Assembly: GCA_964016885.1 (NCBI GenBank)
Contig: OZ024747.1
Span: 26,660,001 to 26,724,000 of the forward strand
Direction of reading: 5' to 3'
Length of the DNA: 64,000 nucleotides
From: Eledone cirrhosa
Taxonomy: Eukaryota
In this document: one piece after another, positions 17,171 to 38,219 of the stretch
How positions within the stretch are numbered: the stretch's first letter is position 1
How the letters are laid out: the number at the start of each line of letters is the position of its first letter
Translations under genes and position numbers: made by a program
Notes under the pieces: model-generated
What the model was told of the DNA's origin: nothing
Database searches by the model: none
Seen by the model: the letters and a program-made list of their open reading frames with translations, nothing else

Positions 17171-17441
17171 TATAAAGAATTAAAAAGAACAGAAAGATGC
17201 AGTAAAAGAGATTTATTCGGTTCTTACGTACGTTTCAATAGACATCAATTTGCCTAGATCTCGCTACATCTATAATATTATATATTTAGTAGAGCATTCG
17301 ATATCCAATGCACAATCGATCCCATATCATCAGAGATTAGGTTTTTAGCGAGATCTAGGCAAATTGATGTCTATTGAAACGTACGTAAGAACCGAATAAA
17401 TCTCTTTTACTGCATCTTTCTGTTCTTTTTAATTCTTTATA
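17171..17441. repeat. fold-back element, 96-bp arms, HHR on minus strand (17222-17336)
   Basis: Arms 17171-17266 and 17346-17441; TCT-CTGATGA-T-ATGGGATCGATT...AATTGATGTCTAT-T-GAAAC-GTAC-GTA-AGA. Confidence 0.8.
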
Positions 17442-17712
17442 TACGCCCCGGAATATAGCTAAACTGGAATATACACCTTTTTTCTGCATTTCGTTGAGCA
17501 CCACTTTGTTGTAAGCTGACATTCCACTACACGGTACATAACACTGTGTCCTGGAAAACATTAATGCACTCGTGCATAACTAATTATATATATATATATA
17601 TATATATATATATATATATATATATATATATATATATATATATATATATATATCATATCTGTCCCAGTTCTTGTCTCGACATACCCTTTTCTGAGATGGT
17701 ACATCGTAAGTA

Positions 17713-17879
17713 CCGTATTTCCCGGTGCCGAAGACGCTTTGTCTTCGAGGAAGCACCCTAATTTTGACAACCAAAAATAATTAAAAAAATAATAAACAAC
17801 TTTCGGCATCCAGGACGCATGGCAGACTTTTAGACTTATTTTAGGGAAAAAGTAGCGTCTTCGACGCCGGGAAATGCGG
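17713..17879. mobile_element. MITE, pogo/Tc2-like termini
   Basis: TIR CCGTATTTCCCGGTGCCGAAGACGC / GCGTCTTCGACGCCGGGAAATGCGG, TA flanks. Confidence 0.85.
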
Positions 17880-18020
17880 TACTTAAATTGTTTCACTTTC
17901 TCTCCTTCCTTTTCATCAATCTTGATCGGCTCTTCTAAGTTTCTTGCTCTTCACAAGTACTTTGTCCTTCTCAGCACTTAATTTCATATATATAGATATA
18001 TGTATTTGTGTATGTATATA

Positions 18021-18194
18021 CAGTGAAATTCCGTTATAACGAAATTCACGGTGTATTAAAAAATTCGTTATAATAAAATCTTCTTTATAACGAGATCGAC
18101 GTAAACCATCGAGCGTGTGGGCGGGAATTGAAAAAAATGTTGTTATACTGAAAAATTTCTTATAATGTTAGTCTTTCTAACGGAATTTTACCTG
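18021..18194. mobile_element. MITE, Tigger/pogo-like termini
   Basis: TIR CAGTGAAATTCCGTTA / TAACGGAATTTTACCTG; internal TATAACGA/TCGTTATA repeats. Confidence 0.7.
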
Positions 18195-18207
18195 TGTATA
18201 TATATAA

Positions 18208-18500
18208 CTGATAACTTTGATAGGTTTCGGCCAGTATTGGCCCAAGCCATATCTAATTTAATAGTACCACCTGGTGAAGTCTTTCAAATCAGGATTTGGA
18301 CACCATTACCCACTCAAGTAGAGAGTTATTGTTTACGGAGCATATCCAGGTGTAGGAGGTTTATTGGGGATTTCTTGAAGGAATTTGTCCAAAGACTTCT
18401 TGAACTTTATGGGGTCTGTTTCTGTTTTAATGTGTAATGTTAAAGAGAGCGGGGTTAATTGAGGTGAAATAATTGTGTCGTATTGTTGTTATGAAATGCG
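18208..18500 (-). mobile_element. CR1-group LINE 3' end fragment
   Basis: Minus strand DPIKFKKSLDKFLQEIPNKPPTPGY..NNNSLLEW followed by a short 3' UTR. Confidence 0.6.
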
Positions 18501-34120: not shown

Positions 34121-35299
34121 CGTCGTCTTCATGATGGGGATAGTGATAATGAAGATGATGATGATGATGATAATGATGGTGATGATGATGAGAAGGAGGA
34201 GTGTAATAATATAAGATGGTCATACCGAGGATGAGGTGACATTTAAGGTGGCGCTAATGTCGTTAACAACACAAAAATGGTGACAACGATAACGATGATG
34301 AAATATAGGTGGTGGTCGTGGTGGTGGTGTGGGTAAGGTGTGGCATTGGGTGTGGTAGTGGGGACAATGGTAGTGGTGGTGGTGTGGGTAAGGTGGGGTA
34401 TTGGGTGTGGTAGTGGGGACAATGGTAGTGCTGGTGAAATAACTAATATTCAGGGTTTTTTCACTAATTGTTTATGGGATATATATATATATATATATAT
34501 ATAATATATATAGATACGCACACACACACATAGACACACATACACACACACATACACATACACACAGACACACACTTCGTTTTTGTATTTGTTTTGTATT
34601 TGATTTATTATCTGAAAACGTGTGTTGAAACAGATATTGTTGTACTTTGGGAGAGTCATGTTGTCAATCAAAAGACACGCACCAGTTTTTTTCACTTCAA
34701 TTTATTATAAACTTCCATCTAGTTGGCTAGTTTAATAACCGGATGGTTGTTTATTTACGGTAAATAAGAAGGCATTTAATAGATACTAGTTCGTCACCCA
34801 TCCCTACACTGCCGGGAAAATACACACACAAACAACCAAAGCAATAACTATAAGTATTTTATATATATATATCCAGGGAGTATAACGCGGAGTTACTGTA
34901 GGTTCACCCGGGTGAGCACTCGATGTTTAGGTTCACGTCAGTATCGAGGTGTTGAGCTAGGTGTAGAGCAGTAGCGATACAGTTCGAACCTTGAGCTGAT
35001 CAATAGCGAAACGCGCGTCGCCTACAATAAACGTAATGAAAGAGTAACCATTCGTCCTTGTATTATTATTATTATTATTATTATTATTATTATATATACA
35101 TATATATATATATATATATATATATATATATATATATATATATATATATATATATATATATATATACATATATATATATATATATATATATACATATATA
35201 TATATATATATATATATATAAGTGTAACGATAGACAGACGGATAAACACCTCTTCTTTTATAATATAGATTGTGACGCGATTGTTACAAATAGCGGATT

Positions 35300-35630
35300 T
35301 ACTAACTAATTTTTTACTAGATTAGGCAGAATCAGTATAATAAAACAATGCAGGTATATGACTTCTCCGCCCTATACACTAATTTGGAACTGGATTTGGT
35401 TAAGGAACCGGGTAGGTAGAATAATAAACCTGTTTTCGGGAAATAAGTTTAAGTATGTTTCTGTTAGGAGCAACATGGTTTCATGTATATAATACGGTAC
35501 AACGGATTAATACGGTACAACGGATACATTAACTGGAAAGAGGATAAACTAGAACGAGCTGTCCGGTTTATAGTAAATAATTCTTACGTTGCATTTGCAG
35601 ATGGTCATTTTAGTAGTGGTTAGACAAATT
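35300..35630 (+). pseudogene. decayed Penelope-type RT fragment
   Basis: KTMQVYDFSALYTNLELDLVKE and KLERAVRFIVNNSYVAFADG resemble PLE RT motif YDFSxLYT and the following region. Confidence 0.6.
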
Positions 35631-35810
35631 TACAAACATCACATTAAACATCACATTGCTTATGACGCATGCTTATGTAAATATCGATCCACATACATAA
35701 ACCCTCACACACATGCATACTATATATTTGTGTGTGTGTGTATGTATGTGTGTGTATATATATATGTTTATATATATATATATATATATATATATATATA
35801 TATATATATA

Positions 35811-37360
35811 TGAATATAGACATAGAATATTCGAAAATATTCTGTATGTTTATAATAAACATTTTGAAGACCTAATCGCTATAGAATAGAATACGTCACG
35901 TATTACAATTAGATTCTCGATAAAAGCAAGGGAAGTAATCTACGCGTTTCATTCTCGTAAGAAATCATCAGGACTACATATCCAGTGCTTTTATCGAGAA
36001 TGACACAGCTAGAGACTTATAGAATACTTAGCTGTGTACAGGAACTGGTTTGAAAGAGCGGTTGCCGGTCCGGCAGAAATTAGAAATTGGAATAAATGCT
36101 CTGAAATAGCGATATATATGTGAATATAGACATAGAATATTCGAAAATATTCTGTATGTTTATAATAAACATTTTGAAGACCTAATCGCTATAGAATAGA
36201 ATACGTCACGTATTACAATTAGATTCTCGATAAAAGCAAGGGAAGTAATCTACGCGTTTCATTCTCGTAAGAAATCATCAGGACTACATATCCAGTGCTT
36301 TTATCGAGAATGACACAGCTAGAGACTTATAGAATACTTAGCTGTGTACAGGAACTGGTTTGAAAGAGCGGTTGCCGGTCCGGCAGAAATTAGAAATTGG
36401 AATAAATGCTCTGAAATAGCGATATATATGTGAATATAGACATAGAATATTCGAAAATATTCTGTATGTTTATAATAAACATTTTGAAGACCTAATCGCT
36501 ATAGAATAGAATACGTCACGTATTACAATTAGATTCTCGATAAAAGCAAGGGAAGTAATCTACGCGTTTCATTCTCGTAAGAAATCATCAGGACTACATA
36601 TCCAGTGCTTTTATCGAGAATGACACAGCTAGAGACTTATAGAATACTTAGCTGTGTACAGGAACTGGTTTGAAAGAGCGGTTGCCGGTCCGGCAGAAAT
36701 TAGAAATTGGAATAAATGCTCTGAAATAGCGATATATATGTGAATATAGACATAGAATATTCGAAAATATTCTGTATGTTTATAATAAACATTTTGAAGA
36801 CCTAATCGCTATAGAATAGAATACGTCACGTATTACAATTAGATTCTCGATAAAAGCAAGGGAAGTAATCTACGCGTTTCATTCTCGTAAGAAATCATCA
36901 GGACTACATATCCAGTGCTTTTATCGAGAATGACACAGCTAGAGACTTATAGAATACTTAGCTGTGTACAGGAACTGGTTTGAAAGAGCGGTTGCCGGTC
37001 CGGCAGAAATTAGAAATTGGAATAAATGCTCTGAAATAGCGATATATATGTGAATATAGACATAGAATATTCGAAAATATTCTGTATGTTTATAATAAAC
37101 ATTTTGAAGACCTAATCGCTATAGAATAGAATACGTCACGTATTACAATTAGATTCTCGATAAAAGCAAGGGAAGTAATCTACGCGTTTCATTCTCGTAA
37201 GAAATCATCAGGACTACATATCCAGTGCTTTTATCGAGAATGACACAGCTAGAGACTTATAGAATACTTAGCTGTGTACAGGAACTGGTTTGAAAGAGCG
37301 GTTGCCGGTCCGGCAGAAATTAGAAATTGGAATAAATGCTCTGAAATAGCGATATATATA
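35811..37360 (-). mobile_element. retrozyme-like tandem array: five 310-bp units, one HHR each
   Basis: Units start 35811, 36121, 36431, 36741, 37051, apparently identical; minus-strand HHR at 35935-35977, 36245-36287, 36555-36597, 36865-36907, 37175-37217; no ORF. Confidence 0.92.
35935..35977 (-). ncRNA. type I hammerhead ribozyme of the 310-bp unit (first copy)
   Basis: GTAGTC-CTGATGA-T-TTCT-TACG-AGAA-T-GAAAC-GC-GTA-GATTAC; distal stem I extension ATTCTCGATAAAAGCA/TGCTTTTATCGAGAAT. Confidence 0.88.
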
Positions 37361-37398
37361 TAAATAGCGATATATATATAGTCCTGATGATATATATA

Positions 37399-38219
37399 TA
37401 GTCCTGATGATTTCTTACGAGAATGAAACGCGTAGATTACTTCCCTTGCTTTTATCGAGAATCTAATTGTAATACGTGACGTATTCTATTCTATAGCGAT
37501 TAGGTCTTCAAAATGTTTATTATAAACATACAGAATATTTTCGAATATTCTATGTCTATATTCACATATATATCGCTATTTCAGAGCATTTATTCCAATT
37601 TCTAATTTCTGCCGGACCGGCAACCGCTCTTTCAAACCAGTTCCTGTACACAGCTAAGTATTCTATAAGTCTCTAGCTGTGTCATTCTCGATAAAAGCAC
37701 TGGATATGTAGTCCTGATGATTTCTTACGAGAATGAAACGCGTAGATTACTTCCCTTGCTTTTATCGAGAATCTAATTGTAATACGTGACGTATTCTATT
37801 CTATAGCGATTAGGTCTTCAAAATGTTTATTATAAACATACAGAATATTTTCGAATATTCTATGTCTATATTCACATATATATCGCTATTTCAGAGCATT
37901 TATTCCAATTTCTAATTTCTGCCGGACCGGCAACCGCTCTTTCAAACCAGTTCCTGTACACAGCTAAGTATTCTATAAGTCTCTAGCTGTGTCATTCTCG
38001 ATAAAAGCACTGGATATGTAGTCCTGATGATTTCTTACGAGAATGAAACGCGTAGATTACTTCCCTTGCTTTTATCGAGAATCTAATTGTAATACGTGAC
38101 GTATTCTATTCTATAGCGATTAGGTCTTCAAAATGTTTATTATAAACATACAGAATATTTTCGAATATTCTATGTCTATATTCACATATATATCGCTATT
38201 TCAGAGCATTTATTCCAAT
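37399..38219 (+). mobile_element. inverted continuation of the 310-bp array, about 2.6 units, three HHR cores
   Basis: Reverse complement of the left array; HHR at 37399-37440, 37708-37750, 38018-38060. Confidence 0.92.

Follow-up and report, generated by a model that had tools for sequence, protein, structure and literature searches.

Hammerhead folds in the window

The window analyzed here is a stretch of 64,000 nucleotides from Eledone cirrhosa (contig OZ024747.1, positions 26,660,001 to 26,724,000, forward strand). A search that was blind to positions 10.1 and 11.1 identified 19 type I hammerheads, and in 14 of them a U·U juxtaposition replaces the usual pair at these positions. A stricter search gave 16 matches compared with 0.06 per shuffle (100 local dinucleotide shuffles). 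All sites named in an earlier note on this DNA exist (Table 1), with the refinement that the positions 17222 and 24858 mark where two motifs of the minus strand finish at their 3' side, and that 30937 and 31823 are the starts of helix I.

The complete core (C3 U4 G5 A6 N7 G8 A9, G12 A13 A14 A15.1, U16.1 H17) is present at 17333, 24892, 30941, 31828/31732 and 18845 and in eight tandem copies. Exceptions are the exchange U4C at 22625/22612 and the 5'-truncated sites at 2119 and 27303, whose family carries A4. The folds consist of an open-ended helix I of 3 to 6 bp, a helix II with 2 to 6 bp adjoining the core and a helix III; the Watson-Crick pair of the consensus at 10.1-11.1 is absent, with U·U in its place. 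Minimum-energy folding of single motifs mostly did not return the active fold.

The motif at 17222..17336 has a palindromic helix III and a predicted cut after 17225. In the motif at 30937..30994 the fourth step of helix II is a C·C mismatch, and helix III of the motif at 22621..22667 can be closed by an 8-nt loop. The motif at 24858..24895 is a decayed copy whose helix II has become shorter; its family is old (77-87% identity). The 31823 motif and its twin (core 31732, minus strand) are inserted head-to-head between TA-rich runs. Insertion into (TA)n is a trait of Hydra-clade PLEs; a TA run is found near most sites of the window and also within 300 nt of 43.5% of arbitrary positions. For the additional candidate with the core at 18845 no second copy was found in the DNA compared.

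The earlier picture of the window was incomplete, as it left out the hammerheads with other states at 10.1/11.1. Besides the site at 10617, A-U is present at 7830 and 28576 (both minus strand), and G·U was read by eye at 2378 (minus strand). An extra nucleotide followed by G-C occurs at 42543 (plus strand), 5544 and 14450 (both minus strand). The first of these three follows a reading frame with GIY-YIG that belongs to another PLE clade.

Table 1. Positions of hammerhead folds and associated features in the window.
Feature	Position	Strand	Details
Type I hammerhead fold	17222..17336	-	Core 17333; U10.1 17326 / U11.1 17237; 88-nt helix II arm
Type I hammerhead fold	24858..24895	-	Core 24892; U·U 24885/24875
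Type I hammerhead fold	30937..30994	+	Core 30941; U·U 30948/30978; palindromic helix III
Type I hammerhead fold	31823..31861	+	Core 31828; U·U 31835/31846; 3-bp helix II; palindromic helix III
Inverted twin of 31823 motif	31699..31737	-	Core 31732
Type I hammerhead fold, U4C core change	22621..22667	+	Core 22625; U·U 22632/22643
Inverted twin of 22621 motif	22570..22616	-	Core 22612; U4C
5'-truncated hammerhead	2118..2159	+	Without C3/U4 and helix I 5' strand; U·U 2122/2134
5'-truncated hammerhead, second copy of 2119 family	27301..27342	+	
Further U·U candidate, absent from earlier note	18842..18918	+	Core 18845; helix I only 3 bp
A-U hammerhead (counter-example)	10617..10658	+	Core 10621; family mostly U·U
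Classical PLE minimal hammerhead, extra G then G-C (counter-example)	42539..42581	+	Core 42543
Hydra-type PLE endonuclease fragment	29554..30426	-	Its hammerhead: core 28576 (-), A-U at 10.1/11.1
310-bp tandem array, minus arm	35802..37366	-	5 U·U hammerheads; cores 37211, 36901, 36591, 36281, 35971
310-bp tandem array, plus arm	37394..38219	+	3 U·U hammerheads; cores 37404, 37714, 38024

A retrozyme-like array of 310-bp units

The eight tandem copies, three in plus and five in minus orientation, form an array of a 310-bp unit (GC 0.35) with TA runs at both borders. Each hammerhead comprises a helix I of 6 bp, a helix II of U·U followed by 4 bp, and a palindromic helix III. As a short tandem repeat with less than 45% GC and one type I hammerhead per unit the array agrees with the definition of a non-LTR retrozyme, and no reading frame of at least 150 aa is listed in it. 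The predicted 310-bp circular monomer is strongly self-paired (60%, z -3.9 against 60 shuffles). No RNA data set is listed as containing the 310-bp unit; the 340-nt contigs in four runs of unstated kind are as compatible with tandem DNA as with circles. The genome also contains arrays in which this unit has A-U.

Frequency of U·U in the genome

Genome-wide, the short-helix U·U pattern gave 116,104 matches compared with 4,103 for the control, and the G…C pattern 43,811 compared with 8,909. The U·U form is thus common, contrary to the rarity that would have spoken against the earlier proposal. Of the surplus of short-helix hammerhead patterns, roughly one half is U·U (112,000 of 212,000, counted over five of six classes). 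The class outside this count, V..R (purine..purine and C..purine), is near chance in a 1.18-Mb sample, with 24 matches compared with 19.8.

In the same sample U·U was the only strongly enriched mismatch of short helix II patterns (26 compared with 3.3 in shuffles); C..A (3 and 2.5), C..T (2 and 1.7) and G..T (5 and 3.6) were close to their shuffles. The variant is not universal: it makes up 19 of 94 matches and 7 of 26 families of the sample, and the short patterns of the G-C type (24 G..C, 11 A..C, 6 T..C) exceed those with U·U. Among multi-copy or well-folded families the states U·U, G-C, A-U, U-A, G·U, C·A, U·C, A·G and A·A were found.

At the gathering score, Rfam RF00163 (Hammerhead_1) did not match anywhere in the window; at E<=5 no hammerhead family was among the best 150 of 230 matches, and a single motif of the 310-bp unit gave no match to Hammerhead_1 at E<=10. 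The same model does detect a G-C family of this genome, with 18 matches among 74 scored candidates.

State of 10.1/11.1 within and between families

Family tallies were taken largely from loci retrieved with U·U queries and have to be read accordingly. With loci chosen by likeness to the respective site, U·U was found in 28 of 28 copies of the 17222 family (25 loci) and in 29 of 29 of the 30941 family, which has one further C·U copy in L274. In L272 the 30941 family is arranged in tandem with a spacing of 2,057 bp; the 30937 motif is the end of an element of about 2 kb in which no PLE reading frame was detected. U·U is also the state of all ten copies of the 31823 family, of 20 of 24 copies of the 310-bp unit (the other four have A-U) and of six of seven in the 10621 family. 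In the 24892 family 14 of 22 copies have U·U and four U·C, and four other states occur once each.

All 20 copies read from the 2119/27303 family have U·U, and 22 of 27 carry A at core position 4. We rejected the idea that this family is a dead or scrambled motif, since elsewhere in the genome it shows a normal and complete type I fold with a longer helix III. In the 22625 family, whose copies were anchored on the 3' side, U10.1 is kept in 32 of 35 copies (91%) and U11.1 in 34 of 35 (97%), compared with a conservation of only 43-66% in loop II. Core and helices are kept while the loops vary, and paired changes occur in distal helix I. Young families with copies of 98-99% identity have U·U throughout, so that U·U was the state of the source copy.

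The earlier note had counted seven unrelated families. The named sites indeed show no mutual alignment around the motif, yet they have relatives in common. The 310-bp unit can be aligned in register with the 10621 family at 72-77% identity, and a 484-nt unit with U·U shares 70% identity over 122 nt, and an equal helix II length, with a 467-nt unit with G-C. An array of at least 19 G-C units is homologous to a U·U family, and a single lineage (family 0) combines G-C, G·U and A-U. Positions 10.1/11.1 tolerate change in the lineage studied here, and sister families have moved between the states U·U, G-C, A-U, G·U, U·C and C·A.

Linkage to coding frames of Hydra-type PLEs

Hammerheads with U·U are located at fixed distances of about 190, 415 and 940 nt behind three deeply diverged endonuclease lineages, and each linkage was found in at least two genomic places. 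The links in L018 and L279 are single loci and were left out of this count. The endonuclease lies about 415 nt upstream of the 17222 family in L209/L276 and L221/L278; the 2119/27303 family follows it at about 940 nt in L022, L030, L085 and L160. The hammerheads of these two families form the 3' ends of Hydra-type PLEs. The third linked U·U family is the one in L043. The link between the 24892 family and an endonuclease was seen at one locus only (1,540 nt), and searches for a coding partner of the 22625, 30941, 31823 and 310-bp families gave none.

The linked proteins carry the DKT, CxCX5C, CxxC and CxH motifs by which the Hydra clade is defined (PMC8557442). A GIY-YIG-type endonuclease motif, C-terminal to the RT, was read in L160, L194 and L043 and was also matched along a 710-aa homologue, the sole protein from the homologue search; the Pfam GIY-YIG profile itself gave no match. 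The CxCX5C linker, CxxC and CxH are present without a CX2-5CxxC finger in L160, L194 and L278, and the linker is broken in the L043 copies. DKT replaces DKG in L160 and L279, where the sequence covers this region. At the N-terminal RWK position, a trait of the Hydra clade, L279 has RWR; it is the sole frame that covers this region. Hammerheads of another PLE clade in the genome contain the extra nucleotide and G-C. In an endonuclease tree of copies from this genome one of ten inner branches was well supported.

Comparison with published hammerheads

The U·U variant is not new; it has already been published. Natural hammerheads with U10.1-U11.1 were named by Perreault 2011 as a rare core variant (PMC3088659). 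Citing Ruffner 1990, the same text states that mispairs at 10.1-11.1 reduce activity and that U-U is the most active of them. The mismatch is identical by position to the one described here, rare in that survey and the commonest short-helix class in this genome.

Among the closest published systems are the hammerheads of Hydra-clade PLEs (PMC8557442), which likewise have a type I fold at the 3' end of the element; the short helix II of Penelope-3_HM is near-identical to that of the 31823 motif. By our own count of the Craig 2021 supplement, U·U is present in 14 of 25 families, from Hydra, a sea cucumber and a copepod; 11 of the 14 stem from one species, and two share one sequence. The section concerned terms these hammerheads canonical and leaves U·U unremarked. 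What sets the present genome apart is its long helix II arms, a wider range of states at 10.1/11.1 and some 1e5 pattern matches.

For metazoan PLE minimal hammerheads the consensus is an extra nucleotide followed by a highly conserved G10.1-C11.1 (PMC4209133). Type I fold, palindromic helix III and the dimer model are shared with the motifs described here, and the consensus form itself occurs in this genome in a different PLE clade. By our own reading of the published alignment, in the text version of which the GAAA column is missing, two of 56 rows have U·U (Hydra and Drosophila willistoni); Dwi_HHR2, located in 450-bp tandem repeats, also reads U·U. U·U can thus be regarded as the documented norm for the Hydra clade, but not for metazoan PLE hammerheads in general.

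In the axolotl, the retrozyme HHR_Amex2 occurs in 350-bp repeats, with about 60,000 copies, and the base of its helix II is a U·U (PMC7229834). The accessible text gives no position number, and we equate this U·U with 10.1/11.1. As a monomer HHR_Amex2 reaches 22% cleavage, and the dimer a higher value; a sister ribozyme without U·U reaches 6% as monomer. Cleavage and circular RNA were shown in axolotl, whereas the E. cirrhosa motifs are known from sequence alone. In a recent test one of nine Xenopus retrozyme dimers was cleaved, so that a fold is no proof of activity. The accessible part of PMC9901934 contains no value for 10.1/11.1. A genome-wide census of the U·U variant was not found in the literature searched, most subscription papers being outside its scope.

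Origin and possible role of the U·U juxtaposition

The motifs are type I hammerhead folds of PLEs and of retrozyme-like repeats, and we regard it as fairly probable that their published U·U state was inherited from Hydra-clade PLEs and multiplied together with the repeats. Two of the named families terminate Hydra-type PLEs, and the 310-bp unit has a homologue in another U·U family; inheritance is therefore likelier than the independent recurrence proposed earlier, and shared ancestry accounts for much of the pattern. The two uracils may form a non-Watson-Crick pair that stacks on the sheared A9·G12 pair and so keeps helix II in register. Cutting after position 17 would still take place, though probably at a lower rate than with G-C. 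Such cleavage could trim element transcripts or cut tandem transcripts into monomers. Where helix III is short and palindromic, cleavage would take two copies, in line with published work on such motifs, irrespective of 10.1/11.1. Dimer dependence is better explained by this helix than by U·U; the suggestion that U·U enforces dimer cleavage is contradicted by its presence with palindromic and closable helix III alike and by the higher monomer cleavage of the axolotl ribozyme (PMC7229834). A tuning of the cleavage rate by U·U, the other half of that suggestion, would be plausible.

Positive selection of U·U as a brake, with slower cutting sparing transcripts or circles for reverse transcription and with families that converged on it or kept it, would fit its standing as the sole strongly enriched mismatch, its fixation in many successful families and the reduced activity of mispairs (PMC3088659). 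Plain tolerance predicts the same pattern, because U-U is the best mispair, and homologous families thrive with G-C (the array of at least 19 units) or with A-U (310-bp arrays); we therefore consider selection unlikely. A broader version, in which U·U is an ancestral trait of the ribozymes of Hydra-clade PLEs and of the retrozymes derived from them, so far passed over without comment and maintained as a brake on the cleavage rate, seems rather unlikely.

Recurrence by mutation pressure would start from decay of the CpG formed by C11.1 and G12 to U11.1, followed by a drift of G10.1 to U in an AT-rich genome. The observed/expected ratio of CpG is 0.56 in the 1.18-Mb sample, and the mixture of G-C, G·U and A-U in one lineage and of U·C and U·U in the 24892 family is consistent with such a path. 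The uniform U·U of young families, the unenriched G..T intermediate and the publication of U·U from three distant phyla (PMC8557442) make it quite improbable. We judge it very improbable that the motifs are inactive relics that simply travel along in the ends of elements. The lack of an Rfam match in the window and the core damage of some copies (U4C at 22625, A4 in the 2119 family, truncation) would agree with relics, as would the Anolis PLE, for which hammerhead mutants failed to block insertion in vitro. Such relics would hardly keep core and helices, with varying loops and paired changes in helix I, as the 22625 family does, and HHR_Amex2 as a natural retrozyme ribozyme of the U·U type cleaves (PMC7229834).

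Implications

The value of the finding lies in scale and bookkeeping, as U·U makes up about half of the excess short-helix patterns and Rfam detects no hammerhead in the window. Censuses that require base pairing at 10.1/11.1 would count too few animal hammerheads wherever elements of the Hydra clade have become widespread. Families that are homologous but differ at these positions are natural pairs for testing whether PLE ribozymes are tuned to be slow. If U·U were indeed an ancestral signature kept as a brake, the genome would be a natural scan of 10.1/11.1 states, about 100,000 motifs would have been missed by Rfam and by pair-requiring descriptors, and the reason why PLEs keep slow ribozymes would become testable.

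Hammerheads in the window

We scanned the window with a type I hammerhead descriptor that was blind to the letters at positions 10.1 and 11.1, the first step of helix II. The strict descriptor found 16 sites compared with 0.06 per shuffle (100 local dinucleotide shuffles), and a bulge-tolerant version returned 19, comprising 14 with U·U, three with A-U and two with an extra G and G-C. The U·U sites of the earlier note are present as it described them, but the A-U and extra-G sites of the same window had been omitted. Families are named here by window position; 2119 and 27303 are copies truncated at the 5' end, and elsewhere the same family adopts the complete type I fold. 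As expected for an animal genome (assembly size 3.0 Gb), the microsatellite-rich window (GC 38.6%) also contains broken retroelement and transposase frames. Its head-to-head inverted insertions have the layout described for Penelope-like element (PLE) copies. At 30949-30977, 7830(-), 2378(-) and 28576(-), step four of helix II is a C·C mismatch; at 10.1/11.1, motifs with this mismatch carry U·U, A-U or G·U.

Features in the window and at loci elsewhere in the genome (L-numbers)
Feature	Location	Strand	Remark
U·U type I hammerheads	17333, 24892, 31732	-	bulge-tolerant descriptor
U·U type I hammerheads	18845, 30941, 31828	+	bulge-tolerant descriptor
U·U type I hammerheads	eight 310-bp-unit copies		bulge-tolerant descriptor
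U·U hammerhead pair	22625/22612	+/-	U4C core change; strict-descriptor scan
2119/27303 family, truncated	2118-2159, 27301-27342
2119/27303 family, full copies	L022, L030, L085, L160		code for Hydra-type PLE; spacing ~940 nt
17333 family	two genomic places		full spacing ~415 nt
Third U·U lineage	L043, L282		spacing ~190 nt
Extra-nucleotide + G-C hammerheads of finger-type PLE	42543, 5544, L290		L290: 4,147-bp tandem
Inverted head-to-head insertions	31570-31990, 22563-22700, 17175-17440, 30750-31045, 35802-38219
Nested, broken PLE copies	38488-42630	both	GIY-YIG and RT fragments; extra-G hammerhead at each end; LINE-like fragment interrupts at 38870-39469
LINE-type element	52809-55763	-	984-aa endonuclease + RT frame
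Tc1/Sleeping Beauty-type transposase fragment	16100-16855	-
C·A sample loci	L056, L069, L121, L164 (family 6), L021, L160, L071

Abundance and conservation of U·U

Pattern matches were counted genome-wide for five of six classes (helix II spans 8-22 nt; reversed pattern as control). The counts, which are raised by tandem arrays, were 116,104 for U..U (control 4,103), 43,811 for G..C (8,909), 48,739 for A/C/G..U (24,887), 36,014 for U..A/C/G (13,910) and 28,806 for A/C..C (9,558); the classical extra-nucleotide form with G-C falls within several of the non-U·U classes. U·U accounts for 112,000 of the 212,000 matches in excess of control, and the rarity that would have spoken against the earlier note is not observed.

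A sample of 118 stretches, each 10 kb long and at round coordinates, was not strictly random (20 lay near chromosome ends); it gave raw pattern counts (shuffle in brackets) of 26 (3.3) for U..U, 24 (1.3) for G..C, 11 (1.8) for A..C and 6 (1.8) for U..C. The structural descriptor found 94 matches in these stretches versus 0.8 in the shuffle: A-U 23, U·U 19, G-C 13, extra G with G-C 11, C·A 9, G·U 6, U-A 4, A·G 3 and six other states once each. Among 26 sample families U·U was the leading state in seven and G-C in five, plus two extra-nucleotide G-C families. According to these tallies no mismatch is commoner than U·U, which forms a major class yet is one state among several. C·A occurs in families with a long helix II arm (8 of 54 long-arm matches); hypothetically, adenosine editing would convert it to a C-I pair.

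Within families U·U was kept in 28/28 copies (17333), 29/29 (30941), 10/10 (31823, the family of 31828/31732), 20/20 (2119), 20/24 (310-bp unit, the remainder A-U) and 14/22 (24892), an agreement that is favored because U·U queries served to retrieve most of the loci. The 22625 family, anchored by its 3' side only although some loci were likewise picked from a U·U list, has U10.1 in 32/35 and U11.1 in 34/35 copies; across loop II, positions are conserved at 43-66%, and its distal helix I pairs change together. In sequencing run X1, about 16% of the depth at the 37721 copy has A at 10.1, matching the 310-bp unit's A-U subfamily, and this unit is nearly unchanged in runs coded as three other organisms.

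Carriers and relatedness of the families

Two kinds of PLE are present in the genome. The kind with a CX2-5CxxC finger has the classical extra-nucleotide hammerhead with G-C at its 3' end; the second shows the DKT, CxCX5C, CxxC and CxH motifs that mark the Hydra clade (Craig et al. 2021, PMC8557442). In three deeply diverged Hydra-type lineages, U·U hammerheads follow the endonuclease at fixed distances, and a fourth lineage, including window 29554-30426, has an A-U or G·U hammerhead. A tree of these endonucleases gave no resolved branching order, and for the remaining U·U families a coding partner was not found in the analyzed DNA. The tandem 310-bp unit (GC 35%, stable predicted circular fold, z -3.9) has the profile of a non-LTR retrozyme, and a derivation of retrozyme-like repeats from PLE ends is described in a 2026 preprint (10.64898/2026.07.22.740005).

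The earlier note had proposed independent recurrence in seven unrelated families. Its sites indeed show no mutual alignment around the motif, but the 310-bp unit shares 72-77% identity with the 10621 family (U·U in 6/7 copies) across 150-240 nt, with the ribozymes lying in register. Moreover, homology links a tandem unit of 484 nt, which carries U·U, to a G-C unit of 467 nt, and in each of them four pairs follow 10.1/11.1; related copies also differ in having U·U versus G-C, A-U or C·A. Common ancestry with a first step that switches state is therefore indicated, not seven inventions. A homologue of a U·U family, L280 (G000:C1:5737000-5752400), is a long tandem array of 466-bp units with a G-C hammerhead in each.

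Possible role of the mismatch

In solved hammerheads the sheared A9/G12 pair adjoins the 10.1-11.1 pair (PMC11300833). Since helix II is equally long in G-C families and their U·U homologues, U·U would stack beside this pair as a non-canonical pair, and predicted cleavage probably continues more slowly. From sequence comparison, the mismatch may be either simply tolerated or selected as a brake. The earlier note had also suggested that it enforces dimer cleavage. Helix III is perfectly palindromic in 17333, 30941, 31823 and the 310-bp unit, whereas 22625, 18845 and the 2119 family have one that can close, and palindromes occur in G-C families too. U·U is therefore no mark of dimer-only ribozymes, and dependence on a dimer goes with helix III instead.

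The earlier note had raised the question of whether U·U is catalogued. A helix II beginning with a U10.1-U11.1 mismatch was already named by Perreault et al. (2011, PMC3088659), who cite Ruffner et al. (1990) for U-U as the most active mispair and whose filter discarded such mispairs unless activity had been measured. Axolotl HHR_Amex2 (~60,000 copies) has U·U at the helix II base; its monomers cleaved to 22% in one hour compared with 6% for its sister, and dimers performed better for both (Cervera and de la Peña 2020, PMC7229834). For PLE motifs, Cervera and de la Peña (2014, PMC4209133) described G10.1-C11.1 as strongly conserved, yet by our reading 2/56 alignment rows, Hydra and Drosophila willistoni, have U·U. 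Our count from File S2 of Craig et al. gives U·U in 14/25 families of the Hydra clade (11 from Hydra, 2 from sea cucumber, 1 from copepod), besides G-C 7, G·U 2, U·C 1 and one ambiguous; their hammerhead section passes over U·U without comment.

Taken together, U·U at 10.1/11.1 is real, abundant and already known; it is best taken as a characteristic of the hammerheads of Hydra-clade PLEs and of non-coding derivatives of these. New are the families themselves, the scale and the spread of states at a single position. In the 2119/27303 family core position 4 is A instead of U in 22/27 copies with helices I-III intact, and hammerheads combining A4 with U·U would escape standard core searches.
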